A stretch of 64,000 nt of DNA, from assembly GCA_965205015.1 (NCBI GenBank), contig OZ242029.1:4288001-4352000 (forward strand). Reading direction: 5' to 3'. The translations under genes were made by a program, and so were the position numbers. The notes beneath the pieces are model-generated. The model did not search any database, was not told where the DNA came from, and was given only the letters and a program-made list of their open reading frames with translations. The first letter of the stretch is position 1. Each line of letters opens with the position of its first letter. The stretch is from Candidatus Poribacteria bacterium (GTDB lineage Bacteria; Poribacteria; WGA-4E; WGA-3G). Shown here piece by piece: positions 637 through 39,593 of the stretch.

Positions 637-1404
637 ATGAAAGGGATCCAATTAGCGAAATCAATATTGGTATACGGAACGCTGATCTGTATCAGCTTCA
701 TGATGCCGAATTTAAGTTCTGCCAAGCTTGATGCGGACACCCTGTTGGGAATATGGTTCTTTGATGAAGGTAAAGGGGGTGAGGCAAAAGATTCTTCCGA
801 GAACGGTAATGATGGAAAGATTGTTGATGCTCAATGGGTCGATGGTAAGTTTGAAGGCGCCTTAAAGTTTGAAGGGGGTGCGCATGTTGCTGTCGGTGAT
901 TTTTCTGACTATGAAGATGAAGTGTCGATCGTTGCTTTTATTAAAACCCCTGCTGCCCCTGCATGGTCGGATATCATCGTAGGTCCCTGCGGCGATGTTA
1001 TTTTGACCCTAAGGGACCACAAATTAAATTTCGCTGGACAATGTGCCCAACCGATTCCCCATAATACGTGGTCCAAATCCTTGTTGAACGATGATAAGTG
1101 GCATCAGATTGCAGGTACTTATGACGGTAAGACAGTGAAGGTCTATGTCGATGGTGAGGAAGAAGCCTCTAATGCCGCCGCAGGTCCATTTAAAACGGGA
1201 CCGAAGTATATCGGCTCCAGAGACGATAAGCAGGAGGCTTTCACAGGGCTCATTGATGAGATCGCATTTTTCAATGTCGCACTCTCGGATGCGGATGTGA
1301 AAGCGATTGCAGACAGTGGATTATCTATCGCACTCGGTTTTGCCGCGATTTCTCCTCAAGCGAAACTGGCGACGGCTTGGGCGAAATTGAAGACGGAACA
1401 TTAA
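637..1404 (+). CDS. Secreted LamG/concanavalin-like jelly-roll protein with C-terminal ISP..KLATAW..K tail
   Basis: GGAGG at 627-631 before ATG 637; signal peptide; LamG motifs WFFDEG, WHQIAGTYDG, VYVDG, FTGLIDEIAFFNVALS. Confidence 0.85.
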   Translation: MKGIQLAKSILVYGTLICISFMMPNLSSAKLDADTLLGIWFFDEGKGGEAKDSSENGNDGKIVDAQWVDGKFEGALKFEGGAHVAVGDFSDYEDEVSIVAFIKTPAAPAWSDIIVGPCGDVILTLRDHKLNFAGQCAQPIPHNTWSKSLLNDDKWHQIAGTYDGKTVKVYVDGEEEASNAAAGPFKTGPKYIGSRDDKQEAFTGLIDEIAFFNVALSDADVKAIADSGLSIALGFAAISPQAKLATAWAKLKTEH

Positions 1405-1472
1405 CTCGTTAAGGGTATCAACTTCGTTATTATATGTCGGCTCGGGTGGAGTCGTTAGGGGTGAACCAAACG

Positions 1473-2297
1473 TCAAAAATCGGAGGGTTTTGCAACGCGA
1501 CGCCAATGTTGACTGCACTCCAGCGGCCAATCGGTACAGATAGCGTCTATTTTGATAGCGCGGGCTTTGTCCCAGACGTCAGGTTGCTTCTCACTGATGT
1601 GCAAAGCGAGCCAGACTTGTTTACCGAGTTTATGCGCCTGTTCAACTGCTTCCGCATTTGGCATGAAATGTAACCATAAGCAGTCTGCGAGTGGGTCCTG
1701 CAGTGCTGCGACAAACTGGTCGGCTTCACTGTTATTTAGGTATACCGTAGTCTGTAACTTCGGATTGGCTTGTTTGAAGCGACGACTCGAATCACTGGGC
1801 TGACCGAAGGCGCAGAGTTGATTAAACAATCCGTATTTTTCGACGAGTTGCACGATGTTCTTCTCAATCCCCGGCGAGATGACTTTCATGTTCAGTGCGA
1901 TAGTCACTGGGGTTCTTTGACGCTCGCGAATAAGTTTGAATACCTCTTCTAATGTCGGTACTGTCTCTCCATTGAAACGCTGATCGAACCAACGTCCGGC
2001 ATCCAATCTGCGGATTTCCGCCAAGGTCATTTTGGGCACTTCACCGGTGCCGTTGGTCGTGCGGTCCACAGTCTTGTCGTGAATGACCACCAGGCGTTCG
2101 TCGCGGGTCTGGTAGACGTCCAATTCTATTGATAAGCCCAGCTCAATGGCGGCAGCAAAAGCAGGTAAAGTGTTCTCAGGCGCGTGCTCCACCAAACCGC
2201 GGTGAGCAAGCAAGATTGGATCCGCGACCGATGCCTCCACCGTTGGCTCTGGTGGCGCGGCGATCGCATACGTAAACATTAGCATGTTGAAAGGCAT
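1473..2297 (-). CDS. Glycerophosphodiester phosphodiesterase family protein
   Basis: AHRG...PENTLPAF, ELDV, VVIHD..VDRTTNG, AICTDWP motifs. Confidence 0.9.
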   Translation of the reverse strand: MPFNMLMFTYAIAAPPEPTVEASVADPILLAHRGLVEHAPENTLPAFAAAIELGLSIELDVYQTRDERLVVIHDKTVDRTTNGTGEVPKMTLAEIRRLDAGRWFDQRFNGETVPTLEEVFKLIRERQRTPVTIALNMKVISPGIEKNIVQLVEKYGLFNQLCAFGQPSDSSRRFKQANPKLQTTVYLNNSEADQFVAALQDPLADCLWLHFMPNAEAVEQAHKLGKQVWLALHISEKQPDVWDKARAIKIDAICTDWPLECSQHWRRVAKPSDF

Positions 2298-2466
2298 AAT
2301 TGACCTCCGACGGCAAATGATCCTTATCTAAATCATAACACGTTTAGCAAAGACGGTAAATAAAAAAGGTAGGTATTTTTCTGAACAAATTCAGCCCTTA
2401 TTTGCCTAATCTTGATAAAGAACGTATGCTTACCACACAAATTCCGAACGCGTAGAGAGGAAACAG

Positions 2467-4617
2467 ATGAAACGGAAACATGTTATTATACCCCTTTGCT
2501 TGTGTGTCTTGGTGTTTCCATTGGTGCTTGTTCTAAACACTTGGACGCAAGATAAGCTCTCACAGGAAGAGAAACGGTTTGATTTTGACCGAGACGGTGA
2601 GCTCAATGCCTCCGAAAAGGAGTTCATGGTGAGGGTGATGCGGCTGGAAGATGCCAGGGGCACCCAATTCAGTGAGAGCCAGATTCGCGAAATGCGCACC
2701 GGACAGCGAGATAGATCTCGCCGTAGAGGCGGAGGCGGGCGGGGACGCGGTTCAAGAGAGCCTACAGGACCGCGCCTGAATCCAGAGCAGGTCGCATTCA
2801 GGGACGGCACAGCTACTATTCCTGACAGAGAGACCTTTGAAAAGTTGTCGTATCAAGGCACAGAAGTCCGCATTGATACCCAACTTATCGGAATTGAATT
2901 TGTAAAATTTCAGATTGAAAATACACATACACAAACCCCTCAACTTTATTTTATGAATACAGAGACGCATCGTTCACATGGTGCCTTCATGCGCGTTGCG
3001 GGTTTGAGACGAGGGCAAGGACAGATGCGCGGGGTGTTGAGTTATCGTCCACTTTTCACGTCTCCAAATGGTGAACCCGGGGTCTATACCTTTGAGTTTA
3101 ATCCAAACGACGCATTCCCGTTTGAGGAGATCAAGCTTGCCCATGACCTGCTCGTGGCGAAGATGCCGATACTGAAAAACAGACTCGGTTATTGCCCATT
3201 GTGGGGGGCAGTCGGGATTTATGAACGGGAGAAAGCATTCTATGACGCAGCGGAATTCCCTGTTTACTTTGAGGATGATCTTTACGCGAACATCGGTTAT
3301 CTTCCCTTGAATCAGACGTCGTCATTTGGGCGGCTACGTCTGTTGGCGGTAGGTGAACGTCCTGCGGTTCGGGACATTGTTATCTGTAAGACATTACCAA
3401 ACGAGATGCCACGGGTTGCTGGGGTAATTACAGGTGTTCGGCAAACACCGCTTTCGCACGTCAACCTCCGGGCTATGCAAGACAAAGTCCCCAATGCCTT
3501 CATCACTAAGGCGTGGGAGAACAGTTCGATTGCACCGCTCATCGGTAAGTATGTCTACTATGCGGTGAACGCAGACGGCTTTGAAATTAGGGAGGCGACG
3601 CTTAAAGAGGTGGAAACCCACTTCTCTGATTTACGTCCTTCAAAGGTGCAAAAACCTGAACGCGACCTTTCTGTAAGGCGGATTCTACCGCTGGACGACA
3701 TCGGGTTTACGGACGCAGCGCGCTTCGGTGTGAAAACCGCGAACCTCGCAACACTGCGGACGTTCGGATTTCCTGACGGGACTGTTCCGAATGGGTTCGG
3801 GATACCATTCTATTTCTACGACGAATTCATGAAACACAACGGCTTCTATGATGACCTTGGAGGGCTACTCAAGGATACGGCGTTTTTAAGTGATCACGAC
3901 ACAAAGGCAGCTGAACTCAAAAAGTTTCGGACGGAAATTAAAAAGGGTGAGATGCCGGCGTGGATGATGGACGCGCTTTCAGAATTGCATAGTGCATTTC
4001 CAGAAGGGACATCTCTCCGGTGCCGTTCCAGCACTAACAACGAGGATCTCCCCGGTTTCAGCGGTGCCGGTTTGTATGATTCCTATACACACCATCCGCA
4101 TGAGGGACATCTCTCTCAGTCAATCAAACAAGTGTTTGCGAGTCTCTGGAATTTCCGGGCGTTTGAGGCGCGTGATTTCTATCGTATTGACCCTTTCGTT
4201 ACTGCTATGGGGGTGCTCGTCCACCCGAATTTTGAAGGCGAATTGGCGAACGGGGTCGCTGTAAGTGATGATGTTGTTTATCAGACGCAGGGGAATTATT
4301 ACCTCAACACCCAAGTCGGCGAAGATCTCGTAACAAATCCCGAGGCACAGTCCATTCCAGAGGAAATTTTGTTGGATTGGTGGGATAGTAATAATTATAG
4401 GATCATAACGACATCCAATCGAACGGCAGATGGCGCACGAATTCTAAAGGATGCGTATTTACGTCAACTCAGTTTCTATCTTGGAACGATACATAATAAA
4501 TTCAGCCGTCTCTACACCTCTGCTTCACGAACGAACGATTTCGCTATGGAAATTGAGTTCAAGATTACGAGCGAAGGCAAACTCGCGGTCAAGCAGGCGA
4601 GACCGTGGGCGCAGTGA
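2467..4617 (+). CDS. PEP/pyruvate-binding (ATP-grasp) dikinase-like protein with N-terminal signal/anchor, EF-hand-like loop and phospho-His motif
   Basis: GVKTANL, VPNGFGIP, RSSTNNEDLPGFSGAGLYDS, VFASLWNFRA, EIEF, QARP; PLSHVNLRA upstream of these; DFDRDGELNASE near the N-terminus. Confidence 0.8.
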   Translation: MKRKHVIIPLCLCVLVFPLVLVLNTWTQDKLSQEEKRFDFDRDGELNASEKEFMVRVMRLEDARGTQFSESQIREMRTGQRDRSRRRGGGGRGRGSREPTGPRLNPEQVAFRDGTATIPDRETFEKLSYQGTEVRIDTQLIGIEFVKFQIENTHTQTPQLYFMNTETHRSHGAFMRVAGLRRGQGQMRGVLSYRPLFTSPNGEPGVYTFEFNPNDAFPFEEIKLAHDLLVAKMPILKNRLGYCPLWGAVGIYEREKAFYDAAEFPVYFEDDLYANIGYLPLNQTSSFGRLRLLAVGERPAVRDIVICKTLPNEMPRVAGVITGVRQTPLSHVNLRAMQDKVPNAFITKAWENSSIAPLIGKYVYYAVNADGFEIREATLKEVETHFSDLRPSKVQKPERDLSVRRILPLDDIGFTDAARFGVKTANLATLRTFGFPDGTVPNGFGIPFYFYDEFMKHNGFYDDLGGLLKDTAFLSDHDTKAAELKKFRTEIKKGEMPAWMMDALSELHSAFPEGTSLRCRSSTNNEDLPGFSGAGLYDSYTHHPHEGHLSQSIKQVFASLWNFRAFEARDFYRIDPFVTAMGVLVHPNFEGELANGVAVSDDVVYQTQGNYYLNTQVGEDLVTNPEAQSIPEEILLDWWDSNNYRIITTSNRTADGARILKDAYLRQLSFYLGTIHNKFSRLYTSASRTNDFAMEIEFKITSEGKLAVKQARPWAQ

Positions 4618-4637
4618 TTTTACTTTCCGCAACTACT

Positions 4638-4664
4638 GTAGGTGCGGTTTCCCAACCGCACCTA
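4638..4664. repeat. GTAG-type REP palindrome between convergent genes; possible bidirectional terminator
   Basis: taggtgcggtt-tccc-aaccgcaccta, perfect 11-bp stem. Confidence 0.75.
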
Positions 4665-4685: not shown

Positions 4686-5723
4686 CTAATTCGCTTTTTT
4701 AAATTCACCCCAGGTTGTGATAAACCTATCTCGTGGTGTTACGCTTAGACTCGGTGCGAATTCTTCAACGGTTGGAAGAATCGCAGGTCCCAAGCCTTCA
4801 GCGACCCCGCCAACGGCATAGATTTTATTCTTCAGGTTCCCAGCTCCCAAGAAAACTCTCGCTGTTGGCATTTCTGGACTTTCCATCCATGTGTCAGTTG
4901 CTGGTTCGTATACTTCGACAGTTGCCAATCCGGGTCCTTGCACTGTAGATGTACCGCCCATAGCGTAGATCTTTGAACCTACTGCACTAACAGCCAGAGC
5001 CGTTCGGGCGGTCGGCATATCTGTTTTCTGTGTCCATGTACCTGAACTCGGATCGTATTCTTCAACCGTTTTAAGAACGGGTCCTTGCACGGCAGGTGTG
5101 CCACCAATGAGATATATTTTTTTGTCAATACTTGCGGCTGCCATTCCTGAACGTGGCGTCGGCATATCTGTTTTCTGCGTCCATGTGTCAGTTGCCGGAT
5201 CATATTCCTCAACAGTACCTAACACGGGTCCGACATTTTGGGCGATGCCTCCAATTGCGTAAATTTTATTTGATATGACAGTCGCTGCAAAAAACGAGCG
5301 TGGCGTCGGCATATCTGTTTTCTGCGTCCATGTGTCAGTTGCCGGATCATATTCTTCGACTGTTCCAAGTGCCGGCGATTGTCCGTTCCATCCCCCGATC
5401 GCATAAATCTTTCCATCAACTACGCATGTTACGACCCCCGCGCGTCCTGCTGGTAGACTCGCTTTCTGGGTCCACTCGTCCTTATCCGAGTCGTAAGCCT
5501 CAACAAAATCAACCGGTTCAGCAAGCATTCCACCGATAGTGTAAAGCTGATTATCAACGGTAGTTACGGAAAAAAAGAGCCTCGGAATCGGCATGTCTGA
5601 TTTTTGTGCCCAGTTTTCGGCGGTGGCACTGTACATCAAGATGAAGGTGAATAGAAGGGTGAACAGCCCACAACAATTAAAAAATGAAAATGCGTTTGAT
5701 CGTATTGTAATTTTTTTTCTCAT
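4686..5723 (-). CDS. Secreted Kelch-repeat beta-propeller protein with C-terminal VTP..RFITTWG..K tail
   Basis: Six KIYAIGG...VEEYDP..DTW..K.DMPTPR-type repeats; N-terminal signal peptide. Confidence 0.9.
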   Translation of the reverse strand: MRKKITIRSNAFSFFNCCGLFTLLFTFILMYSATAENWAQKSDMPIPRLFFSVTTVDNQLYTIGGMLAEPVDFVEAYDSDKDEWTQKASLPAGRAGVVTCVVDGKIYAIGGWNGQSPALGTVEEYDPATDTWTQKTDMPTPRSFFAATVISNKIYAIGGIAQNVGPVLGTVEEYDPATDTWTQKTDMPTPRSGMAAASIDKKIYLIGGTPAVQGPVLKTVEEYDPSSGTWTQKTDMPTARTALAVSAVGSKIYAMGGTSTVQGPGLATVEVYEPATDTWMESPEMPTARVFLGAGNLKNKIYAVGGVAEGLGPAILPTVEEFAPSLSVTPRDRFITTWGEFKKAN

Positions 5724-16248: not shown

Positions 16249-16378
16249 ATTTCTCAATGTTTCTAACAATTTTGGCACATAATGCCTAAAACTGAATGGG
16301 TGTAACGCCCATACATTTACTGACCGCAGTGGGAAAACGAAGGGCATTGTCTGTTCCCCCTGCGGATTGGAAAGAACA

Positions 16379-17038
16379 ATGCTTACACATGCAGCTGAGG
16401 ATTACCTCAAGTCAATCTATAAATTGCAAGAGAAAGTCGGTAAAGTTTCGACCGGCATTTTGGCGGACTACCTCAATGTGAAGCCTGCGTCTGCCACCGG
16501 GATGATTAAGAAGTTAAAAACGATGAAACTGGTGAGACACGAGCGGTATCATGGTGTCACGCTGACGGATGCTGGGAAAGCAATCGCACTTGAAATTATT
16601 CGGCACCATCGTTTATTGGAACTTTATCTATTCAAGGCGCTTGGTGTACCGTGGGATGGTGTTCACGAAGAAGCCGAGAAATTGGAGCATGTCATTTCGG
16701 AAGATGTCGAGGCGCGGATGGACGAGTTTCTCGGCTACCCAACTGCCGACCCGCATGGCGCCCCGATACCCGATAAAAACGGTGTTGTGAAGAAGACGGC
16801 GCATATCCCGATGACAGAAGTGTGTGAGGGACAATCCTGTGTTGTTGCTGAAGTCAGTGACACCGATTCAGCGTTGCTTCGGCATTTAGGAAGTTTCAAT
16901 CTCTACCCGGGCACAGCATTCCGAGTGATTGAGGTCGCTCCCTTTGAAGGTCCCTTTACTATCGACGTTGCAGGACAGCAGGTCGTTATTGGGCGGGAGG
17001 TAGCGAAACATATTTTTGTCGAGGATGTGGAGGAATAG
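16379..17038 (+). CDS. mntR: DtxR/MntR family metal-dependent repressor with C-terminal FeoA/SH3 domain
   Basis: EDYLKSIY, LTDAG..IALEIIRHHRLLELYL, VHEEAEKLEHVIS, DPHGAPIP. Confidence 0.92.
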   Translation: MLTHAAEDYLKSIYKLQEKVGKVSTGILADYLNVKPASATGMIKKLKTMKLVRHERYHGVTLTDAGKAIALEIIRHHRLLELYLFKALGVPWDGVHEEAEKLEHVISEDVEARMDEFLGYPTADPHGAPIPDKNGVVKKTAHIPMTEVCEGQSCVVAEVSDTDSALLRHLGSFNLYPGTAFRVIEVAPFEGPFTIDVAGQQVVIGREVAKHIFVEDVEE

Positions 17039-17172
17039 TTATCGGTTATCGGTTGTCGGCTATCGGTTAAGAGATGTCTGTAACAATCTTTGCCAATTTG
17101 GAATACTCTGGGAAATGGTGAATTGTTACGTGAAACCTCTTGACCGACAACTGATTACTGACTGCTGACAAC
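17036..17172. repeat. Heptamer-ended inverted-repeat element (family also at 20029, 36498, 39614, 41121, 42411, 43543)
   Basis: tagttatcggttatcggttgtcggctatcggttaagag ... ctcttgaccgacaactgattactgactgctgacaac. Confidence 0.75.
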
Positions 17173-17181
17173 GATAAAAAA

Positions 17182-18321
17182 ATGGAACAGCAAAAACAGA
17201 TGCGACCGGATGGTAAAACAATCAAGATATGGAAGCGCCATTTACAAGATGAAGTTGACGCGGGTTTCCTTTATAGCGTTTTCGCTGGTCTTGAGTCCGA
17301 TTCGAAGCGAAAGGATATCTTAAGTGGACTCGCTGGGGTGGAAAATCGGCATGTCATACGTTGGCGGGAGATGCTTGCCACCTACGATATAAAGGTGAGA
17401 AAGCAGCGACCAACATTGAAAGCGAAATTGATGGCATGGTATGCGCGCCGATTTGGGAGTGAGTTTCCACTCTCGCAGATGCTTGGTGAAGAGGCGAGTG
17501 AGGTTAAGGATTATCTAACGCTTCATAGAAACAGTACATTGGCAGATGCGAAGGAGACGGCACTGATTTTAGCCAGAGAATCTGCGATGCATACAGAAAG
17601 TTTGCAGGAGCTCACTGGCACGAGTGAGGAACCGTGGCACAAGACTGAATCTGGAGGCATGGTTGGCAACATTGTTTATGGATTTAACGACGGCTTAACG
17701 GCGAACTTCGGTTTAGTCGCCGGCGTTATAGCGGCAACGTCCGATGTCTCTACGATTCTTGTGACAGGCATCGTTGGGACGGTCGCGGATGCCCTTTCTA
17801 TGGGGGCTTCGGGATACCTCGCCGCGAAAAGTGAACAAGAGGTTTATGAACACGAAATCGAGGTCGAAAGGGAGGAAATCCGCCTCATGCCTGACCTTGA
17901 AGAGGAGGAACTCGCCCTTATTTATGCAGCGCGAGGCGTCCCCGAAGAACAGGCTCGCGAACTTGCCAAGGAAGTGATGAGCGACCCCGAAAGAGCATTG
18001 GGAGAGAAAATCCAAACCGAACTTAAAATCGGGGAAATTTATGCCACCCCGTTCAAAGAGGGGTGGATTACAGGACTCGCAACTGCTATCGGGGCTTTTA
18101 TTCCTGTTGCTCCATTTCTTTTTATAGAAGGTATGCTTGCCATTTGGATCTCGTTCGCACTTGCCATGATGTCTCACTTTGCTGTTGGTGCTACCCGAAG
18201 TCTCTTCACCGGGCGCAGTTTATTTCGCAGTGGTATTGACATGTTCGTTGTAGGGCTCGGTGTCGCAGGCGTGGGTTATCTCGTCGGTGAGATCTTAGAA
18301 CACTTCTTTTTTGGGAATTAA
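17182..18321 (+). CDS. VIT1/CCC1 family Fe/Mn transporter with N-terminal ferritin/rubrerythrin-like domain (MbfA-like)
   Basis: N-terminal E..H pairs (ENRH, ESAMH); IVYGFNDGLTANFGLVAGV, ALSMGASGYLAAKSEQE. Confidence 0.88.
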   Translation: MEQQKQMRPDGKTIKIWKRHLQDEVDAGFLYSVFAGLESDSKRKDILSGLAGVENRHVIRWREMLATYDIKVRKQRPTLKAKLMAWYARRFGSEFPLSQMLGEEASEVKDYLTLHRNSTLADAKETALILARESAMHTESLQELTGTSEEPWHKTESGGMVGNIVYGFNDGLTANFGLVAGVIAATSDVSTILVTGIVGTVADALSMGASGYLAAKSEQEVYEHEIEVEREEIRLMPDLEEEELALIYAARGVPEEQARELAKEVMSDPERALGEKIQTELKIGEIYATPFKEGWITGLATAIGAFIPVAPFLFIEGMLAIWISFALAMMSHFAVGATRSLFTGRSLFRSGIDMFVVGLGVAGVGYLVGEILEHFFFGN

Positions 18322-18325
18322 GATT

Positions 18326-19288
18326 ATGCAAAGCGTATACATTTCATTATGTTTGATGGTTTCCATACTTGTGTGGACTGGGTGCGATCCGAAAGAGCAA
18401 CCTGATGCTTCCACAGTCGGGAAAATTCGCGTTGTCACGACGATCGGTATGGTTACCGATATTGTTAAAAATGTTGGTGGTGAACGCGTCGAGGTTACAG
18501 GATTAATGGGACCCGGGGTAGATCCACACCTTTATAAAGCGAGTGCGGGTGATGTGCAGCGGTTAACTTCGGCGCAACTTATTTTCTATAATGGGTTACA
18601 CCTTGAATCGAAAATGGGGGACATTCTTGCCAAAATGTCGGGCAATACGAGGACTGTTGCCGTGACAGATGCCGTTGACCGGAGTTTGCTACTAACACCC
18701 CCGGAATTTGAAGGGCAATACGATCCGCACTTATGGTTTGACGTAACACTTTGGATGAAAGCGGTGGGAACGGTTCGTGATACACTGAGTGAATTCGATT
18801 CAGACAATACACTCATGTACTGGACCAACGCTGAACGCTACCTCGCGAAACTCGCGGAACTGCACGGATATGTGAAGTCACAAGTGGAACGCGTGCCGTC
18901 TGAGCAACGGGTACTCGTAACGGCACACGACGCTTTTAACTACTTCGGAAAGGCTTATGGGTTTGAGGTGCGCGGACTACAGGGCATTAGCACCGCAACA
19001 GAAGCGGGGATTGCCGATGTTCAGAAGTTGGCGACCTTTATCGCAGAGCGGCGCATTCCTGCAATTTTTGTGGAATCCTCCGTCTCTACGAGGAGTCTTG
19101 AAGCAGTGAAAGCCGCCGTGAAGTCAAGAGGATTTGATGTAAAAATTGGTGGAGAGCTTTTCTCTGATGCCATGGGAAATGAAGGGACGCCTGAAGGGAC
19201 TTATATTGGAATGGTTCGTCATAACATTGATACGATTGTGACAGCACTCATTGGAGGAACATCTGCCAATTCTATGGTCGGAAATTAA
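18326..19288 (+). CDS. troA: Mn/Zn/Fe ABC transporter substrate-binding lipoprotein (TroA/MntA family)
   Basis: Lipobox WTGC; [29 protein letters not shown]. Confidence 0.9.
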
Positions 19289-19290
19289 GT

Positions 19291-20031
19291 ATGCAAGCGT
19301 CCGCAACGAAAGCCATTGAAGTAACGGATCTAACGGTTGCCTATCAAGATCAACCTGTCTTGTGGGATGTTGACCTTGATGTGCCCCCTGGGGTGCTTCT
19401 GTCGATTGTCGGTCCCAATGGCGCGGGCAAAACGACGTTGATCAAAGCCATTTTAGGATTGGTACGCCCCGCTGCAGGCAATGTCTTGATTTACGACAAA
19501 CCTTATGAAGCACAACGCCGGATCGTCGGTTACGTCCCACAACGGGGGACGGTTGACTGGGATTTTCCGACAAATGTGCTGGATGTCGTCATGATGGGTC
19601 GTTACGGTGCCCTCGGATGGGTGCGACGTCCAGGGAAACAGGAGCGGGAACTCGCCATGTATGCTTTGGAGAAGGTTGGCATGGAGGCGTATACCACTCG
19701 GCAAATCAGTCAGCTCTCCGGTGGACAACAACAGCGTGTTTTCTTAGCACGTGCCCTCGTTCAAGACGCTACGGTATACTTGATGGATGAACCTTTTCAA
19801 GGCGTTGATGCTACCACAGAACGCGCAATTGTAACCCTACTTCAGGAGCTCCGAGAAAAGGGGAAAACGGTTGTCGTGGTACATCACGATTTACAGACGG
19901 TAACCGACTATTTCGATTGGGTAATGCTCTTGAACATTCGCCGGATCGCGAGCGGTCCCGTTGACGAAACGTTCACACCTGAAAATTTGCGTACAACTTA
20001 CGGCGGTCGCGTTGCATTTGTGACGAAATAG
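19291..20031 (+). CDS. troB: Metal ABC transporter ATP-binding protein
   Basis: [37 protein letters not shown]. Confidence 0.92.
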
Positions 20032-20160
20032 TTATCGGTTTGCCTGCTGCACAGGAAACCTTCAGCAGTCGGTTTTTAGTTAAAGTCTAAACTCTGATTT
20101 TTATGATTTACCATGATTATCGAAGATTTCATCATGGTAAATCGCATAAATCACAATAAT
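20029..20160. repeat. Partial heptamer element followed by an AT-rich hairpin
   Basis: tagttatcggtt...; ttatgatttaccatgat ... atcatggtaaatcgcataa. Confidence 0.55.
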
Positions 20161-20161
20161 T

Positions 20162-21103
20162 TTGGTCAAAAATTTGAGTATCCTAACCCATCTTGATTAT
20201 ACCCTCATGATTGTTGCCCTCGGTGCTGCCTTACTGGGTGCTGTGAGTGGTGCACTTGGGACCTATGCTGTTTTGCGCCGGCAAAGTCTCCTCGGCGATG
20301 CCATCTCACATGCCGCGTTGCCCGGTATTGCCATCGCATTTCTGCTGACGGGAAGCAAAACACCTCTGATTTTGGTCCTCGGTGCAGCAATCGCGGGCTG
20401 GCTCGGCACGCTGCTCATTTTGAGTATCGTGAGGTTGACGCGTATCAAATACGATAGTGCCCTTGGGATCATACTCTCTACCTTTTTCGGATTCGGTTTA
20501 GTGCTACATACACTGATTCAGCGGACCGGTAATGCAAATCAAGCAGGATTAGATACGTTTCTCTTCGGACAAGCCGCTACGATTCTGAAGAGCGATGTCT
20601 TAACCATAGGTATCCTCGGGGGCATTGCAATCGTCATCATGCTTGTCTTTTGGAAAGAGTTGAAGTTGCTGGTTTTCGATGAAGGTTTCGCTGCATCGCT
20701 TGGGTTCCCGATCCGTGCACTTGACATTCTGTTGACGAGTCTCCTTGTGATAGCAATCGTTCTCGGTTTACAAGCGGTGGGTGCTGTCCTGATGAGTGCG
20801 ATGTTGGTTGCACCGGCGGTCGCTGCACGGCAGTGGACGAATAAACTGAGCGTGATGATGTTTCTCGCTGCGTGCTTTGGAGCACTCGCAGGCGTGAGTG
20901 GAACCATTATCAGTAGTAGTGCTTCACGCATCCCGACGGGGCCAACGATTGTACTGTGTGCGACAGTTGGGGTCGGGTTCTCGATCGCTTTTGCCGCGAA
21001 TCGCGGACTTTTATGGGACTGGCTTCGGCACCAACGAAACAAACGGAGTCTAAAGATAGCAGCGGATCGGTTATTGAAGCATCCGCAACGTGGGAGCGAG
21101 TAG
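20162..21103 (+). CDS. troC: Metal ABC transporter permease
   Basis: VLRRQSLLGDAISHAALPG, FLFGQ, WKELKLLVFD, GLQAVG, PTGPTIV; start uncertain. Confidence 0.9.
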   Translation: MVKNLSILTHLDYTLMIVALGAALLGAVSGALGTYAVLRRQSLLGDAISHAALPGIAIAFLLTGSKTPLILVLGAAIAGWLGTLLILSIVRLTRIKYDSALGIILSTFFGFGLVLHTLIQRTGNANQAGLDTFLFGQAATILKSDVLTIGILGGIAIVIMLVFWKELKLLVFDEGFAASLGFPIRALDILLTSLLVIAIVLGLQAVGAVLMSAMLVAPAVAARQWTNKLSVMMFLAACFGALAGVSGTIISSSASRIPTGPTIVLCATVGVGFSIAFAANRGLLWDWLRHQRNKRSLKIAADRLLKHPQRGSE

Positions 21104-21105
21104 AC

Positions 21106-22215
21106 GTGATACAAGAGCATCTTGATATCCAGCTCATTGCGGTTATCACAGCGGTGGCTTGTGCTTTACCGGGCGTGTATCTGGTACTACGACGGATGAC
21201 TTTGATGAGCGATGCAATTAGCCACGCCATTCTCCCCGGTATTGTCCTCGCCTTTTTTCTCACGGAGAGTTTGTCCTCGCCCCTCCTAATTCTTGCCGCT
21301 GCGGGAACCGGTGTACTCACTGTCGTTTTCGTTGAATTGCTGCAACGGACGAAACTGGTGAAGGAGGATGCCGCGATTGGCTTGACGTTCCCCGCCCTTT
21401 TCAGCATCGGGGTGATCCTGATTTCCAGATTTGCAGGCGATGTTCACTTGGATATGGATGCCGTTCTCCTCGGTGAGCTCGCTTACGCGCCGCTTAACCG
21501 ATTAAATATTTTCGGACACGACTTTGGTCCTGTATCTGTCTATGTAATGGGAACAATTCTGCTGTTGAACCTCGCCTTTATTCTGTTATTTTACAAAGAG
21601 TTGAAGTTGGCAACCTTTGACGCGAGTTTAGCTGCCACGTTAGGGTTCGCGCCTACCCTGATTCACTATGGACTGATGACGCTGGTCTCCGTTACAACGG
21701 TCGGTGCATTTGACGCTGTTGGTTCGATATTAGTCGTTGCACTCATCGCTGGCCCGCCTGCTACTGCTTATCTTATCACAAACAAACTTTCGCTGATGCT
21801 CACCTTGAGCGCGATTATTGGGAGTGTGAACGCTGTCGGTGGCTATTGGCTCGCGTATCTTTTCGATGTATCTATTGCGGGGGCAATTGCGACAATGACG
21901 CTCCTTGTGTTCGGATTGATTTTCCTGGTTGTTCCGAATCGCGGCGTTATTGCTATCGCACGGAGGCGGACACGCCAAAAATGGGAGTTTGCCCAAACGA
22001 TGTTAGTCATTCACCTTTTTAATCACGAGGGACTCCCGGAAGCTGAGGCGGAGTCAGAGATAGCACACCTCCATGAGCATCTTCGCTGGGATCCCACATT
22101 CGCAACCCAAGTCGTAAAATATGCCCTGAACAACCGTTGTGTTTCTCAAGAGGAGACACAGTTGACACTGACAGAACGCGGACGTGCAGTAGCACAGCAA
22201 GCACTTGTGCAATAA
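21106..22215 (+). CDS. troD: Metal ABC transporter permease with C-terminal DtxR-like winged-helix extension
   Basis: LRRMTLMSDAISHAILPG, YKELKLATFD, AFDAVGSILVV; GTG 21106 just after the troC stop; tail ends LTLTERGRAVA. Confidence 0.88.
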   Translation: MIQEHLDIQLIAVITAVACALPGVYLVLRRMTLMSDAISHAILPGIVLAFFLTESLSSPLLILAAAGTGVLTVVFVELLQRTKLVKEDAAIGLTFPALFSIGVILISRFAGDVHLDMDAVLLGELAYAPLNRLNIFGHDFGPVSVYVMGTILLLNLAFILLFYKELKLATFDASLAATLGFAPTLIHYGLMTLVSVTTVGAFDAVGSILVVALIAGPPATAYLITNKLSLMLTLSAIIGSVNAVGGYWLAYLFDVSIAGAIATMTLLVFGLIFLVVPNRGVIAIARRRTRQKWEFAQTMLVIHLFNHEGLPEAEAESEIAHLHEHLRWDPTFATQVVKYALNNRCVSQEETQLTLTERGRAVAQQALVQ

Positions 22216-24773: not shown

Positions 24774-25604
24774 GTGAAAACAGTTATTTCGATCTATACC
24801 ACAATATTTTTCTTAGCGATGACATCTGTTGTCGCATTCGCCAATGTTGTTGAGGATCCTGTACTCTATCTCAATGCTGCTGACAACCCTGCGCATCCGA
24901 AGGCATGGGAAAATCTCGGTACTGAAGGCGGGGAATTGCTCGTCGCAGATAAACCCATGGAACTCGAAGAAGGCGAAATTAAAATTCCCGCCCTCGGTAT
25001 CAATGAACCAAACGCAAAGTATTACACAACCAAAGAATCCCATTCAACCTTTGGCGGTCCACCTGGAAAAAATACCCCGATATTTCTTCAGGACTGGACC
25101 TTGGAGTTCCTCTGTCGGCGCAATGGCGATTTTTTTGTCGAGGAGCATCACTTCGCTGGTTTCCAGAACAGTCCAAGAGAAGGCAAGCAGGGGATTCGGC
25201 TTTGGATAGTCGGTGGTCAGAACTTGGACGCCTCCATTCATGCCGGCGGTGCTAAACAGGGTGTTCAAACGCTTAACATCAAACTTGAAGAAGGCGTTTG
25301 GACCTGGATAGCAGTCGTCGGTACGAATGATAAGTCAATTGTTGCGTATCAAGATGGAAAAGAGGTCAGCAAACAAGCCGGTTTTGAATTCGATAAGAAA
25401 TTACCCATAAACGACATTTCAATCGGTGCAAATTCCTTTGATGAACGCCGTCGAACTTTCAACGGATCGTTCGCAATCGTCCGCGCTTATGATAAAGCAC
25501 TGACTGAAGCGGAGATTAACCAAAACATTTCTGGCGCATTCGCTGTCGATCCGGCGGACAAACTCCCAACGGTTTGGGCTAAAGTAAAACGCGGCTATGA
25601 ATAA
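24774..25604 (+). CDS. Secreted LamG-like protein with C-terminal VDP..KLPTVW..K tail
   Basis: AGGAG RBS; signal peptide; WTWIAVV, AYQDGKEV, FNGSFAIVRAYDKALTEAEI. Confidence 0.8.
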   Translation: MKTVISIYTTIFFLAMTSVVAFANVVEDPVLYLNAADNPAHPKAWENLGTEGGELLVADKPMELEEGEIKIPALGINEPNAKYYTTKESHSTFGGPPGKNTPIFLQDWTLEFLCRRNGDFFVEEHHFAGFQNSPREGKQGIRLWIVGGQNLDASIHAGGAKQGVQTLNIKLEEGVWTWIAVVGTNDKSIVAYQDGKEVSKQAGFEFDKKLPINDISIGANSFDERRRTFNGSFAIVRAYDKALTEAEINQNISGAFAVDPADKLPTVWAKVKRGYE

Positions 25605-33491: not shown

Positions 33492-35369
33492 TCATTGATT
33501 ACTAAAAGCGTTCGCAACCATCACAAGGTCCAAGATGTTCACAACGCCATCAGAATTGAGATCGGGTCCGGTGGAATCACTAAAAGCGTTCGCAACCATC
33601 ACAAGGTCCAAGATGTTCACAACACCATCAAAATTGAGATCCCCACGATAAGGGCTATTCACCATTTTTTGTAATTCTTCCCAGAATTCAGCATTTGAAT
33701 TGGTGCGATGCAGTATAGAAATCGCTTGTTGAACTTCAAAATGATTCTCATAATGATACCGGATGGTCGGAATCACGTCCACGTGCTTATACAGATCAAT
33801 ATGTACATTCATTATCTCATTTTCGAGTTCTACATATCGCGCTTCCGTCAAATACGTCAAGGGAGAGCCATAAGCACGCGACCCGTGAGAGAATAAGAAA
33901 TCCGTGATCGGGTGTGTATATCCCGAATCATCACCACGCGCGTAAAAAGCAACGTAAGACGCTGTGATTTCGTTAATCTTTTCGCCAGCAAATACAGTGC
34001 CCGGCATCGCTGCGATAAGTTCTTCATGTAAGAGCCTGTTCCCCTGAATTGGGGTTAATCCCTCAATCGGCTCAGCATTCGCGATGTAGTAGTTGACATC
34101 AAGATGAAAGGCATCAATGTTATATGTCGATTGCAGGTTTTTCAAGACGCGCACGTAGTGTTCTCTATAACTCGAACAGGCTGGATTGATATAGGCGGGG
34201 CCTCCGATATCCACTCCATATCCTGATATTCCGCCTCTTTGACCACGGTAGAGACAGGCGTTCCATTCGGCGTAACGCGGATGGGTTTGGGAAACAAACA
34301 GAAAACCTGTGTAGAGCATCACCCTAAACCCGCGTTGATGCGCAGCAGCTATAAACGTCGGCAAATCTTCTCTCACAGGATGGTCGGGCCACCCGCCGTC
34401 GAGCGTCTGACTAAAATTAGGCATCCAACCGCCCCGGCAGTAAAACAGGACATGTTTTGGGTCAATATGTTTCGCCACAAAGTCTAACATGGCAATGTAG
34501 TCCCTATGGAACGAACAATACATCACAACGAGTTGAATATCTTTCAGCCATGCGGGCCTGCGAGGTGCGCGCGTTTGGTTTCGCTTTATCAGGTCTTGGC
34601 GATATATCTCTGCAGGCACCCGCCAATCGCCCTGGTATGTATTCACTCGCCACGTTGTGGAAGTGACGTCTTGGTCAAAGGGAAAAAAGTTTTCTGTTAT
34701 AAACTCAAGTTCAAAGGCATCCGGGTGACGTGTGTAATTGAATCTGCTTAACCGATACTCCTCGTCCAGACTCATGATAGAACAACCGCCAGTATGCCCT
34801 TCAAGGATCGCGAGTCGCGCTTGCCACCCCAGACCTGGGCTATCGAAACTCCAATGTTGACGCGATTCAGCATTGATCCGTAGCCCCCCGTTCGCTGGCA
34901 CAATTACAGAGGCTTGACTATGATCTAAATTCCCAAAGCCCCAGCCGATAATCTCAATCCCCTTTGGATCAAAACCCTCCTGCTTGATGATGAGATCTTT
35001 CGTGAACTCGTCAATAGACACCCACAGGGTGAATGTCTTTGGACGACGTTCATCCCACTGTGCTGTAAGTTTCACTGTTAAGGGGGCACTCTTTTTAACT
35101 TCAAGGAAATCAGCATCTGCTATCCTTAAGTCATGATTGAGTCCGGCATAAGGTCTCTCTTCTGTGAGTGTTGTTCCTGGGCGTGTATAGGTTTCCTCGG
35201 TGAGTTTGTTGTGGCAGCGTGTGATGATACCGTTTTTTAGATGTATCTGATAGGTATCGGTCTCAGCGAAAATGTCGCCTTGTTCGCTCACCGTAAGCGA
35301 TGCGGGATAAGCAATGCTTAGCAAAACAAACAGCAATAGAAAGATAGACGTTATGAGTGTTTTCATCAA
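33492..35369 (-). CDS. Secreted GH-like TIM-barrel protein (DUF6259-like) with two C-terminal dockerin-type repeats
   Basis: Signal peptide; AAHQRGFRVMLY, YINPA, IDAFHLD; DLNFDGVVNILDLVMVANAF and DLNSDGVVNILDLVMVANAF, with near-identical DNA at about 33500-33640. Confidence 0.7.
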   Translation of the reverse strand: MMKTLITSIFLLLFVLLSIAYPASLTVSEQGDIFAETDTYQIHLKNGIITRCHNKLTEETYTRPGTTLTEERPYAGLNHDLRIADADFLEVKKSAPLTVKLTAQWDERRPKTFTLWVSIDEFTKDLIIKQEGFDPKGIEIIGWGFGNLDHSQASVIVPANGGLRINAESRQHWSFDSPGLGWQARLAILEGHTGGCSIMSLDEEYRLSRFNYTRHPDAFELEFITENFFPFDQDVTSTTWRVNTYQGDWRVPAEIYRQDLIKRNQTRAPRRPAWLKDIQLVVMYCSFHRDYIAMLDFVAKHIDPKHVLFYCRGGWMPNFSQTLDGGWPDHPVREDLPTFIAAAHQRGFRVMLYTGFLFVSQTHPRYAEWNACLYRGQRGGISGYGVDIGGPAYINPACSSYREHYVRVLKNLQSTYNIDAFHLDVNYYIANAEPIEGLTPIQGNRLLHEELIAAMPGTVFAGEKINEITASYVAFYARGDDSGYTHPITDFLFSHGSRAYGSPLTYLTEARYVELENEIMNVHIDLYKHVDVIPTIRYHYENHFEVQQAISILHRTNSNAEFWEELQKMVNSPYRGDLNFDGVVNILDLVMVANAFSDSTGPDLNSDGVVNILDLVMVANAFSNQ

Positions 35370-35481: not shown

Positions 35482-36489
35482 CTACTGCATCCATGTATAA
35501 ATTTGGCGAAGGGCACCTTCACTCTTTGTCCACAACGTCCTTTTCAGTGGTGAAACGACCTTAGTGTAACTGGCGAAGTCTGTCCGGACGGCGCGATACT
35601 GTTCCTTATGCGCAATTAACCCTGTGTTTTCTGGTGGGGATGCCCCGAAATCCACCCATTCGTATTGGTCATGACACGCCCCTGTGATAATGTGGTGGAA
35701 AATCGCGTTGTTCGGACGGTATTTCAGGAACGCTGGCACAGAGGCTTCACACCACAACGTTACGGTCTTATTGAAGCGTAGGTAGAGCAGTCCTGCGATA
35801 ATCGTGTCGTGATATGTAGCGATAGCAAGGTTGGCGATTTTCCGTTTCAAGAGTGCCTGCATGAGTGCGCGCGGCTTCGGAGTGCCACCTAACCGTTTGA
35901 CTGTCATGAGATACATATCGTAAAAGGTGGATAAAGCCTCTTCACTATCTGTGTCCGTAACTGTCACACCCGATTTCTCTGCCTTTCTGACCGCGCCCCG
36001 CACCCGTTTGTTATAGGCGTGCCAGAGGGATTCAACATCTCCGTTCGTTTTCAAAAGATGTGTGAAGTGATCTGTCCGTGCGTAACCCATTTCGGCGAAG
36101 AGATCGCCGTCCGTCGCGGTGCGCTGCGGTGTCAGGGTCCAACGGATTTCACACCATCCCTTTGTCGCCGCTTCGGATTCGATGGATCTTATCAGTGTTT
36201 CGGGATTTATTTCCGCCCGTTCAATAAGGTGTATCCCCCCAAACAGATTCCACGGCATTGAATGCCAAAGACGGATGCCCGGTATCGGTTGAAAGACGAA
36301 TGCTGGCAGTCCTCCGATGACCGAATCCTGTTGCTTGATGAGCAGATAGACCGGCGTAAGTTGTTTGAATGCATCCGCTAATGTCTCTCGCCACGCGAGA
36401 CTTTGGAAAGCAGTCGTCTCTGGACATCGCCGAAGAACGGTATTCCACTTATCCTGATTTTGAGGGGTCAAGGGGTCTAAGGTGTACAC
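35482..36489 (-). CDS. FemAB-related GNAT family protein
   Basis: TAFQSLAW, RGAVRKAEKSGV, PNNAIFH.II, WVDFGAS, GLIAHKEQY. Confidence 0.8.
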   Translation of the reverse strand: MYTLDPLTPQNQDKWNTVLRRCPETTAFQSLAWRETLADAFKQLTPVYLLIKQQDSVIGGLPAFVFQPIPGIRLWHSMPWNLFGGIHLIERAEINPETLIRSIESEAATKGWCEIRWTLTPQRTATDGDLFAEMGYARTDHFTHLLKTNGDVESLWHAYNKRVRGAVRKAEKSGVTVTDTDSEEALSTFYDMYLMTVKRLGGTPKPRALMQALLKRKIANLAIATYHDTIIAGLLYLRFNKTVTLWCEASVPAFLKYRPNNAIFHHIITGACHDQYEWVDFGASPPENTGLIAHKEQYRAVRTDFASYTKVVSPLKRTLWTKSEGALRQIYTWMQ

Positions 36490-36497
36490 ATGCCTAT

Positions 36498-36620
36498 TAG
36501 CCGTCAGCGGTCAGCCATCAGCGGTCAGTAAAGAAAAAACGTTCCTGAAACGCTTGTGTCTTTACTGATGGAAACTGAAAGGGTTGCCTGGCAACCCGAC
36601 CTGACGGAAACCGATAGCCA
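36498..36620. repeat. Heptamer-ended inverted-repeat element
   Basis: tagccgtcagcggtcagccatcagcggtcagtaaaga ... tctttactga ... ctgacggaaaccgatagcca. Confidence 0.65.
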
Positions 36621-36631
36621 TTCCTATAGTG

Positions 36632-37570
36632 TTATGCCGCCAATGCCGCGAACAGTGCCTTGATGTAACCGACGGAATAAGCTAACCCAACATCGCCTTC
36701 TAATTTCGGGATGTGATCGGCATTGATACATCCGTCAAATCCGACCTTTTGAAGTTCTCGGACGATTTTGAAGGCGTTCATATCACCATCGTCAAGTAGG
36801 ACTTCCTCAAACGCTCCGGCTGTTGCGAGGCTACCGCGGACGTTCCGTAGATGAACCATGAAGATACGTCCTTTACGTCCGTAGTTATTGATTTCGTCGA
36901 GGACAATTGCACTACCGCCGGCTTCCGCCCGCGTGCCACAACAGTAAAGATAGCCGACGTTTCTGCTCGGGAAGGTATCGGTGACACGATGGAAACCGAG
37001 ACCGCCAAGCGGTGTGTCCGGGTTTGGAACATCTGAGGGATGAATAGCGAGTTTTATGTCGTATTCATCGGCGATAGGAACGAGTGCGCCGTAGACTTCG
37101 GTAAAACGTTTCCACCATTCGTCGAGGGATTCCATCGTTGGGATAGCGGGCGGATCTTGGGTTGCGGCACGGCTTTCCCCACGAGAAGTATAACCGCCCC
37201 GATGGACGGATGAATAACGCGTCATGAGATAGTCGAAGGTATCTCCCCAGAACCGTTGACGGGCAATAGGCACACCTGCTTCCGCGAAGACCCGGAGAGC
37301 GTTGCACGTATTATCTAATTCCTTTTCACCGTCGGGTTGACCCTGCATAAACTTTTCTGTGATGTTCGGGAGCGTGACACGGTTGATATCAAGTCCCCAA
37401 GAACGGATCCGCTTCTTAATTTTCAGGACTTCGTCCAAGTCAGGGTAGCCCTGTTCTTCAACTCCCGGAAAGGCGGTACCGCCTCCAAAGTCGATGCAAT
37501 CTGCCCCGAGTTGTGTAACCTGTTTGAGATAGTTATCAGAAAGTCCACCATCCCAGACTGAAATTTTCAT
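36632..37570 (-). CDS. uxuA: Mannonate dehydratase family protein
   Basis: LVPIADEYDIKLAIHPSDVP, YCCGT, IFMVHLRNV, FEEV..DDGD, ADHIP, AYSVGYIKAL. Confidence 0.8.
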   Translation of the reverse strand: MKISVWDGGLSDNYLKQVTQLGADCIDFGGGTAFPGVEEQGYPDLDEVLKIKKRIRSWGLDINRVTLPNITEKFMQGQPDGEKELDNTCNALRVFAEAGVPIARQRFWGDTFDYLMTRYSSVHRGGYTSRGESRAATQDPPAIPTMESLDEWWKRFTEVYGALVPIADEYDIKLAIHPSDVPNPDTPLGGLGFHRVTDTFPSRNVGYLYCCGTRAEAGGSAIVLDEINNYGRKGRIFMVHLRNVRGSLATAGAFEEVLLDDGDMNAFKIVRELQKVGFDGCINADHIPKLEGDVGLAYSVGYIKALFAALAA

Positions 37571-37643
37571 TTTTTTAATTTTCCTTTCCTAATACGACAA
37601 GGTCCGACTACCCCCCTTAAATTGATGTTATCTCCATTTGCGA

Positions 37644-38651
37644 TTAAAGGGGTAACGGGACGGGTTGTCCACTCTCAACAGATTGGTATGCGGCTAATGC
37701 GATTTCAGCTGCGGCGCGACCGTCTAATCCTGTAATGGGTGGCGGTGTACCGTTACGGATCGCGTCTACGAAGACGCGAATCTCTTCCTGAACCGGTGGT
37801 GGTACCTCGATATCTGCCACTTTAATCTCTCGTCCCTCACCTTCAAAAGGCTTAATCTGAATGGCTGCATCGCCGCCCCAGATCTGTGGAAAATAGATGG
37901 AACCGCCTTCACAATCGACGCGTCCGCCATACCCACCGACAGCAGAGACATGACTGGAGTGGAGCAATCCGACTGCTCCGTTCGCAAACTGCAAGGAGGC
38001 AAGCACTACATCGGGATAGTCGCTCTCGTCTGGTCCGTATTGTCCGCCAGCGGCATAGACAGCGGAGACATCCCCACAGGTCCACCGCATAAAGTCTATT
38101 TCATGGGCATTGATCTCCATAAGGGTCCCACCAGACTTCGCGCGCTCCAGTCGCCAGGGTGTGTGGCTGTACCCGCTACGCCAGGGGCCCCCGATACGAT
38201 GTACCATCATACAGACAGGTGCTCCAAGTTCGCCGCTCTGTACAATTTCTCGGACGGTGGAATGCGTTCCATAATAGCGACATACCAAACCGATCGTCAG
38301 TTTGACCCCGTTTTCCTCAGCGGCGGCAATCATCGCGTCGCAAGCCTCCAGCGTAGGTGCCATCGGTTTTTCGGAAAAGACGTGTTTGCCTGCGTTCGCG
38401 GCATCGACTGCCATCTGTGAGTGCATGAACGGCGGCGACGCGATCAGCACGGCACGAATCCGATCATCGCCGAGTAATTCGTGATAATCCAGTGTATAGG
38501 AGGTTCCGAGGTCTGTGGCAAGTTTTTCAGCCAGTGCTTCTTGAACATCACTAACGGAAATGACCTCTATTCCTTCAACGACGTGTGCGCTGGTGGCAAG
38601 GCTTCTGCCCATGCCACCGCATCCGATAACCCCAACTCCAATGATTTCCAT
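37644..38651 (-). CDS. Gfo/Idh/MocA family oxidoreductase
   Basis: GVIGCGGMG, AGKHVFSEKPM, SGGTLMEINAHEID. Confidence 0.92.
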   Translation of the reverse strand: MEIIGVGVIGCGGMGRSLATSAHVVEGIEVISVSDVQEALAEKLATDLGTSYTLDYHELLGDDRIRAVLIASPPFMHSQMAVDAANAGKHVFSEKPMAPTLEACDAMIAAAEENGVKLTIGLVCRYYGTHSTVREIVQSGELGAPVCMMVHRIGGPWRSGYSHTPWRLERAKSGGTLMEINAHEIDFMRWTCGDVSAVYAAGGQYGPDESDYPDVVLASLQFANGAVGLLHSSHVSAVGGYGGRVDCEGGSIYFPQIWGGDAAIQIKPFEGEGREIKVADIEVPPPVQEEIRVFVDAIRNGTPPPITGLDGRAAAEIALAAYQSVESGQPVPLPL

Positions 38652-38693
38652 TGCTAACTCCACGTTGTTTAACCGCAAGGTAAATTAAGAAAA

Positions 38694-39593
38694 CTATCTG
38701 CGTCTTGCTTTGATATGCCCCCATGTAACGCTCAATTTGCTTGCAGAAGGGCTGACATCCAGTCCTGTGGCATTCATGTTGTTCTCAACTTCTGCTGCAC
38801 TCAAAACACGATCGTAGATGCGGAATTCGTCAATATATCCCTGAATTGTATCGCAATCGCATCCATCTGATCTATCCCCAATGCCGAGGAGGAGTCCTCC
38901 CTTTGAAATCTTACCGCCCTTCATGGCGTATTTTTTTTCCTGTTTTCCGTTCACATAGTAGTGAACCGTTGCGCCATCATAGGTGCCTACGAGGTGCAAC
39001 CACTCCTCAAGTGGAATGTCCTCCAATACATTGTCCTGTGCTGCCACCGTTGATTTGCCACCGGCTCTGACGAAAAAACCGTGTTGGTTATCGTCATCGT
39101 CGTAATAGAGGCTCGCGACTGCGGTGTTCGCTGGCATGTCGTCAAGTGAGATGATCCGGTTCCAACTGTCGTCTAAGGCGTTGATATAGACCCAACATTC
39201 CAGAGTGATTTCCTCCCAATCCCGGTCGATTTTCGGGGGGGTTGAATCTTCAACGAGGAAACGGTCAACACTGCCATCAAAAAGGACGCACTCGCCGATT
39301 TTGCAATCGGCGGCAGGGGCAAGTTCGGGGTCACCATGAACAGCGGCAGCGAGTCCTGACAAGATATCTACCGCCTCTTTTTTAATTTTTACTGTGTCTT
39401 TGTCGAAGGACCAATAAGCGATTAAACCATCTTCAACTGCACCGACGATTGCGTCGGTAGGTTGTGCGTTCCATGTGAGGAACGCGAGAAGGAGAAGGGT
39501 GAATGCGCTTTTGGCATTCGCAAAGACTGTAAAAAACCGTGAATTTTCCACAAAATGTCTGTTCTGAAAACAGGGACTGTTTTTTGGACGCAT
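38694..39593 (-). CDS. Secreted LamG protein with C-terminal VSP...KLSVTWG..K tail
   Basis: LIAYWSFD, ITLECWV, WLHLVGTYDG, YYVNG, GYIDEFRIYDRVLS; GGGAGG RBS. Confidence 0.88.
   Translation of the reverse strand: MRPKNSPCFQNRHFVENSRFFTVFANAKSAFTLLLLAFLTWNAQPTDAIVGAVEDGLIAYWSFDKDTVKIKKEAVDILSGLAAAVHGDPELAPAADCKIGECVLFDGSVDRFLVEDSTPPKIDRDWEEITLECWVYINALDDSWNRIISLDDMPANTAVASLYYDDDDNQHGFFVRAGGKSTVAAQDNVLEDIPLEEWLHLVGTYDGATVHYYVNGKQEKKYAMKGGKISKGGLLLGIGDRSDGCDCDTIQGYIDEFRIYDRVLSAAEVENNMNATGLDVSPSASKLSVTWGHIKARRR

Follow-up and report, generated by a model that had tools for sequence, protein, structure and literature searches.

A short C-terminal tail on exported proteins of Poribacteria and its links to type IX secretion

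Four proteins with a common C-terminal tail

A short peptide that ends four exported proteins, here called the tail, is the subject of this analysis. It lies in a stretch of 64,000 nucleotides (64 kb; contig OZ242029.1, positions 4,288,001 to 4,352,000 of the forward strand) from a Candidatus Poribacteria bacterium, which is referred to below as the window. Three of the proteins match Pfam Laminin_G_3 (LamG; PF13385) and are encoded at 625..1404 (+), 24774..25604 (+) and 38694..39593 (−), the last having a signal peptide with a long n-region. The fourth, at 4686..5723 (−), is a β-propeller protein with Pfam Kelch repeats. Their tails occupy 1345..1404 (+; tail 1, 19 codons and the stop), 25542..25604 (+; tail 3), 38694..38759 (−; tail 4) and 4686..4745 (−; tail 2, of the Kelch protein), and agree letter for letter with those given in the initial annotation under the pattern [VI]xP..[KR][LF]...W[GA]..K; that annotation had proposed a lineage-specific secretion, anchoring or docking tag with its own unidentified machinery. 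An exported protein at 33492..35369 (−) that ends in a dockerin domain (PF00404) serves for comparison; as had been noted, it lacks the tail, and it also lacks the C-terminal domain (CTD) of a type IX secretion system (T9SS).

In all six frames of the window the pattern occurs four times, each time three to four residues before a stop codon, and a looser form, [TSVA]W[GA]xxK, likewise occurs exactly four times. The pattern had no occurrence in 2000 shuffles of the 55 proteins of the window, a test that is partly circular because the expression was derived from the same four tails. A leave-out profile, for which 43 tails from other genomes were used and the four of the window excluded, assigns 21.7, 12.6, 23.1 and 26.1 bits to tails 1–4, respectively, compared with 3.6 bits for the next best segment of the window. 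All four proteins have an N-terminal signal peptide according to a hydrophobicity heuristic, which was used for such calls throughout rather than SignalP; 15 other open reading frames (ORFs) of the window without the tail also pass it, some of them being membrane proteins or false positives. The tails do not qualify as transmembrane helices, with best 19-residue Kyte–Doolittle means of 1.17, 0.33, 0.20 and −0.12. The tails of the four proteins match no model in Pfam or in NCBIfam (the latter in release 20 at E ≤ 1), PF18962, PF13860 and TIGR04183 have no match anywhere on these proteins, no T9SS CTD was found in the window and an ESM Atlas query with a 22-residue tail returned no match. Among the listed matches to homologues of the window proteins, 119 of 120 have the tail at their end, and the two that bear a name are assigned to Ca. 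Poribacteria.

The Kelch protein was modelled from its single sequence with AlphaFold2 (AF2; mean predicted local distance difference test score, pLDDT, of 69.7). In the model, the propeller ends near residue 322 and residues 326–345 lie outside it with pLDDT values below 50, including a short helix at 339–344.

Distribution of the tail

Poribacteria are dominant symbionts of sponges. The genome-wide behaviour of the tail was measured in a complete Poribacteria genome (G001; 5.24 Mb) and in others, not in the genome of the window. A tail profile (A3) matches all 71 of the 71 Poribacteria genomes searched, with 14 to at least 124 matches each; the consensus is V-[EDS]-P-x-x-K-L-x-T-T-W-G-x-[LI]-K and the tail comprises 14–21 residues. 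An unbiased sample of 80 tiles of 20 kb from G001 (1.6 of 5.24 Mb) contains 55 matches of at least 12 bits, of which 54 end within eight residues of a stop codon and the last within ten, so that the restriction to C-termini is complete in this sample. A simple ORF picker called 1200 genes in the tiles, 50 of them with the tail and with a median length of 266 amino acids. Signal peptides were predicted for 48 of these 50 and for 371 of the 1150 others (p = 1e-20), which bears out the proposed co-occurrence; a lipobox-like signal is present in three of the 50, and the signal peptides are therefore mostly of the non-lipoprotein type. Extrapolation gives about 180 tail proteins per genome (G001), from a profile that misses some variants seen by eye.

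The 72 tail proteins in all 100 tiles of G001 fall into 19 unrelated body clusters, in agreement with the earlier view that the tail is appended to unrelated folds. Their bodies include LamG, PD40, WD40 and Kelch propellers, the carbohydrate-binding modules (CBMs) CBM4/9 and CBM9, F5/8, NPCBM, LTD and DUF4960, and many have no family match at all. No PF00404 match was found on tail proteins, and the dockerin motif is present in none of the 50 tail genes. The dockerin protein of the window has no CTD, in contrast to all three of the three dockerin genes in the unbiased tiles; forms in which a module that otherwise precedes a CTD stands without one may be common. A profile search of 1.84 billion representatives yielded 246 proteins at E 0.001, and in 145 of the 150 listed the motif lies within 11 residues of the end. 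The remaining five are three repeat-derived ORFs, which give the top internal matches, and two proteins with longer ends. The motif was found not to be frequent internally or on proteins without signal peptides, not to form an integral element of a fold in the structure models and not to match a known sorting model: the tail is a tag that does not depend on the fold, stands strictly at the C-terminus of proteins with signal peptides and matches no catalogued sorting model.

The tail is not lineage-specific as first supposed, related tails being present in several other phyla. The DNA pattern T-T-W-G-x-[IV]-K-x4-stop retrieved at least 123 stretches from GTDB genomes, and at 92 of 122 loci it terminates an ORF of at least 60 amino acids in the same frame; three of these 92, in unrelated taxa, are probably due to chance. 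The taxa with a related tail are Eisenbacteria, Krumholzibacteriia, Latescibacterota, Fermentibacteraceae, Zixibacteria and Ignavibacteria (Ignavibacteriaceae), and a core T-W-G-x-I-K is common across phyla. Alignment of the Poribacteria-tail profile with an Eisenbacteria-type profile by hhalign gave a probability of 94.9, although the shared core is partly built in because both profile sets were seeded by the same pattern. As judged by this comparison, the tails of Poribacteria and of Eisenbacteria/Krumholzibacteriota are related, which is new in this analysis. The Eisenbacteria-type profile (A4) has matches in all 21 of the 21 tail genomes outside Poribacteria (1–79 each), weak ones in five of six Poribacteria and none in ten control genomes, the controls having been searched with A4 and not with A3. 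A LamG protein with an Eisenbacteria-type tail is also encoded on an IMG/VR viral contig (L002, 1501–2724), either by phage or by host flank. In Latescibacterota, an apparent operon (L070, 8466–18250) combines two tail genes with lipoproteins, barrel-like genes and a 1081-residue TPR protein; one of the barrel-like genes has weak PorP_SprF similarity, and the operon is the sole linkage of tail and barrel seen.

A distinct situation prevails in the class of an uncultured member of the Ignavibacteriaceae (G018), where A4 matches 67 of 81 genomes, 64 of them exactly once and mostly in ORFs of 130–200 amino acids. Twenty loci read in this class represent one family, composed of a signal peptide, one immunoglobulin (Ig)/FN3-like domain and the tail, and 20 further loci from across the phylum extend it. 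The segment T-W-G-S-x-K-A-x-F is invariant in 30 alignment rows with an overall identity to the first row of 27–55%, and the tail is better conserved than the Ig domain before it. In a 141-genome sample of the phylum, one full-length copy of the gene is present in 52 genomes, and tail-less copies of its Ig module are present in long ORFs of 281–4086 amino acids. Of the ten structural neighbours of the single-copy protein listed by the ESM Atlas, seven are clusters with Por_Secre_tail; the top neighbour is a 143-residue cluster whose commonest phylum is Fidelibacterota. These comparisons indicate that the single-copy tail takes the place in which a T9SS domain usually comes after the same Ig module, a further point new in this analysis. 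The 20 proteins of the class have no NCBIfam match, the protein gives only weak fn3 matches and a sequence search of the PDB gave weak antibody-domain matches only. In the phylum Zixibacteria (represented by G017), 18 of 61 genomes have one tail match, mostly in ORFs of 136–164 amino acids. The single-copy gene is flanked by housekeeping genes (maf-like and pyrR-like by sequence reading). At one locus (L065, 443–4108), three genes upstream of it that have no Pfam family match look like gldL/gldM-type motor genes.

Two explanations without a protein receptor or a sorting role can be weighed at this point. That the tail is part of the LamG or Kelch fold, or a relic of paralog expansion, is very improbable and largely refuted: LamG paralogs do dominate, the largest body cluster holding 27 of the 72 tail proteins, but the 72 have 19 unrelated bodies, both AF2 models (of the Kelch protein and of the fusions described below) place the tail outside the fold and, in the single-copy protein, the tail changes less than the domain that it follows. 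An amphipathic cationic helix that binds the membrane or lipopolysaccharide, tethering its protein without a receptor, is improbable. It would agree with the net charge of +2.1 to +2.7 combined with Trp and Ile, with the short helix of the Kelch model and with hydrophobic moments above those of shuffled sequences for the single-copy (0.52 versus 0.35) and Eisenbacteria-type (0.40 versus 0.32) tails; the moment of the Poribacteria tail, however, equals that of its shuffles (0.30 versus 0.28), and invariance of T-W-G-S-x-K-A-x-F at the residue level exceeds what lipid binding usually needs.

Fusions to T9SS domains and co-occurrence with the machinery

One CTD protein of G001 has a tail-like segment directly before the sequence NYPNPFNP. 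A junction profile built from three such tail+CTD cases gave 311 matches in five Poribacteria genomes, and 38 of the 150 matches listed cover the whole junction (5, 3, 9, 2 and 19 per genome). The 40 distinct segments upstream of CTDs come from loci selected by this profile; 23 score 1.9–33.4 bits on a profile of terminal tails only, and the other 17 score −0.4 bits or less or not at all. The spacing between the tail Lys and the Asn of NYPNPFNP is six residues in 23 of 23 alignment rows, and the domain downstream matches PF13860 and PF18962 over the cut-off. By these alignments the tail immediately precedes a T9SS CTD in the fusions, at a constant distance from it, again a new observation; none of the non-Poribacteria CTD proteins examined has such a fusion. 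AF2 models of the 23 rows show the CTD as a seven-stranded sandwich and the tail as unstructured and unpacked with a pLDDT below 50, and the tail is accordingly predicted to be unstructured on its own. The Trp position in the fusions is occupied by Trp (30%), Leu (43%) or Phe (26%), with Gly and Lys at 96%, a decay of Trp that would be expected if the CTD made part of the tail redundant. A donor helix that packs on the CTD in cis was discarded, the models of the 23 rows having no such packing, as was its counterpart in trans on a stand-alone CTD carrier, since the five short CTD ORFs examined look like cargo genes that are broken or frameshifted rather than like adaptors.

PorV-family matches are present in all 27 of the 27 tail-bearing genomes tested (7–18 each; 16–18 in Poribacteria), in four Bacteroidota controls (2–7) and in none of five other controls. 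One PorV paralog of G001 groups with canonical PorV (support 96/90, IQ-TREE). SprA_N matches ORFs of 2163–2524 amino acids in four of five genomes, in three of them over the cut-off, and the SprA-like ORF in Poribacteria has about 2160–2195. Peptidase_C25 proteins were found in five of five genomes, one of them adjoining a PorV-family gene in G001, G008 and G019, and pass the PorU cut-off (NF033707) in three of the five. The 3.2-Mb genome G019 alone has 26 gingipain-like Peptidase_C25 matches. A search for GldN gave no match in any genome, controls included. On this homology, Poribacteria would encode PorV-, SprA- and PorU-like proteins, which is new in this analysis. Kamke 2014 described TIGR04183 CTDs in Poribacteria and, in the available part of that paper, no Por structural genes (PMC3909097); the candidate genes reported here revise that account as far as this part of it goes.

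In the 141-genome sample a sensitive tail profile matches 51 genomes, all 51 of which are PorV-positive, and the tail is absent from all 29 PorV-negative genomes (Fisher 4e-7, a value inflated by kinship). This co-occurrence of the single-copy tail with PorV is likewise new in this analysis. A candidate PorV clade (FastTree support 91) is present in seven of seven tail genomes and in none of four Bacteroidia-type genomes. All-against-all clustering of 1104 ORFs neighbouring tail loci gave no recurring machinery candidate. At two series of loci (L125–L140 and L321–L407), many genes for PorV-family barrels follow immediately downstream of one for a large protein whose end is CTD-like, which suggests many cognate barrel–cargo pairs in those phyla.

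The main rival to a sorting role, which we consider unlikely, is a docking peptide: a linear, dockerin-like module binding a periplasmic or surface scaffold or receptor, with export through a CTD or by piggy-backing, so that the link to T9SS would lie in a shared cargo architecture. The position preceding the CTD in Poribacteria proteins can hold the tail, a dockerin with a helical hairpin or a module of Ig-like type; both dockerin-only (33492 in the window) and tail-only forms exist, most of the motif is kept in the fusions, and near-invariance in the single-copy gene implies a tight protein partner. A docking module does not, on the other hand, account well for the fixed spacing to the CTD and the decay of Trp in the fusions or for the strict absence of the tail from PorV-negative genomes in the 141-genome sample, and no receptor gene was seen beside the tail genes among the loci read.

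Other genes of the window call for brief mention. Ordinary features are bamA followed by skp/ompH and lpxD at 55047–58360 (−) and a metal-uptake cluster at 16367–22215 (+) with a DtxR-type repressor, a VIT1-family protein and ZnuA/ABC-3 components. At 2467–4617 (+), a signal-peptide-like protein carries a PPDK_N (PEP/pyruvate-binding) domain at its C-terminus; such an ATP-grasp-type domain is unusual in an exported protein. SkpA is part of an extended T9SS translocon in Flavobacterium according to the accessible portion of one report (PMC10994853).

A proposed route and comparison with known sorting systems

The tail occupies the slot of a CTD in two independent gene families, before the CTD in one and in its place in the other. 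What stands of the first proposal is a portable, terminal tag linked to signal peptides; a machinery of its own is doubtful because several lines link the tail to a T9SS-like apparatus, and we lean, with a little more than even confidence, towards a short linear sorting signal connected with such a machine. Cargo would be exported by Sec and would then fold in the periplasm; a T9SS component would bind the W-G-x-I-K core, the likeliest candidate being a member of the numerous PorV-family barrels, and would carry the cargo through an SprA-like translocon. The tail might be clipped near its start by a PorU-like C25 peptidase, releasing or anchoring the cargo. The cargo itself resembles that of T9SS in its non-lipoprotein signal peptides and in its lectin, CBM, propeller, LTD and β-helix domains. 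PorU is described in the available text of two studies as preferring a polar residue followed by a small one (PMC5445135, PMC11969387), and the single-copy tail opens with [ST]-[SAG]-V, similar to this preference; for the single-copy gene the agreement is good, whereas Eisenbacteria-type tails agree in part and Poribacteria tails poorly.

Several observations weigh against this route. As far as the consulted part of one paper goes, PorV reads a folded domain (PMC10994853), and the tail has none of the defining features of a CTD (Ig sandwich, GxY, KxxxK). Leu lies two residues before the conserved Val in 51% of Poribacteria tails, a poor fit to PorU, and the PorU homologues of both Poribacteria genomes score under the NF033707 cut-off. 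SprA_N is weak in G001 and was not found in G002. The tail was not matched in 61 of 112 PorV-positive genomes, so that the tail is dispensable for a T9SS. No dedicated barrel emerged, a true tail gene lying within 1.5 kb of one of 95 PorV-like loci; the candidate PorV clade of the FastTree analysis was not recovered by IQ-TREE (nor was it rejected, p-AU 0.378) and is also matched in 26 of 89 genomes without the single-copy tail gene. Finally, V-E-P and G-x-I-K are retained in the fusions, as would also be expected of a module that, like a dockerin, has a job of its own beside the CTD.

We advance more tentatively, at somewhat below even confidence, that a linear peptide of 14–21 residues constitutes a third class of type IX signal, read by its own PorV-family carrier. 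Ignavibacteria, Zixibacteria and their kin would have kept it on a single-copy envelope protein, and most other Bacteroidota sampled would have lost it; in Poribacteria it would have expanded into the principal route of about 180 small binding proteins in each genome, several-fold more than CTD cargo. T9SS signals are held to be folded domains, and a short linear tag, if true, would change the view of cargo recognition, offer a compact export tag for engineering and lead to re-annotation of about 4% of the Poribacteria proteome as surface or secreted lectin-like proteins. It also bears on the point left open, in the available part of Kamke 2014, of CTDs without Por structural genes (PMC3909097). 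The near-invariant single-copy version allows a one-gene test in the Ignavibacteria-containing phylum. This phylum has cultured members. A literature search found no description of the tail motif, most subscription papers and supplements lying outside its coverage.

Among known systems, the dockerin (PF00404) resembles the tail as a small portable module that uses the same pre-CTD slot in Poribacteria and is also found without a CTD. A dockerin is, however, a folded, calcium-binding, duplicated domain with a cohesin partner, whereas the tail is a linear motif without a known partner. The tripartite signals (LPXTG, PEP-CTERM, GlyGly-CTERM, MYXO-CTERM and WGxxGxxG-CTERM, NF038039) are, in the accessible part of their description, likewise short and C-terminal, with many copies per genome, a signature motif and a basic end (bioRxiv 10.1101/2023.06.07.544157), but the tail has no transmembrane segment and no NCBIfam match at E ≤ 1. 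The short CTDs of Prevotella intermedia, as presented in the available text, are a precedent for shortened T9SS signals that open with a PT/GI-type cleavage motif; they differ in having 40–51 residues, three strands and motifs B, D and E, the tail being less than half as long and having none of these motifs (PMC11969387). The closest likeness is to the type A CTD (TIGR04183/PF18962/PF13860), which is read by PorV and cleaved by PorU: both signals are C-terminal and independent of fold, serve cargo with Sec signal peptides and occur in the same genomes, and the tail is fused before the CTD or replaces it behind the same Ig module. Each has one invariant Lys, that of the CTD being taken from the consulted part of the source (PMC10994853). 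The CTD is nevertheless a folded seven-stranded Ig-like sandwich of about 70–90 residues with PxGxY and KxxxK in its last 22, motifs absent from the tail logos, compared with a W-G-x-I-K peptide of 14–21 residues that is predicted to be unstructured. The tail belongs to neither the type A CTD nor the tripartite CTERM families, because their defining features were looked for and not found in it, and it is likely to work like a T9SS signal.

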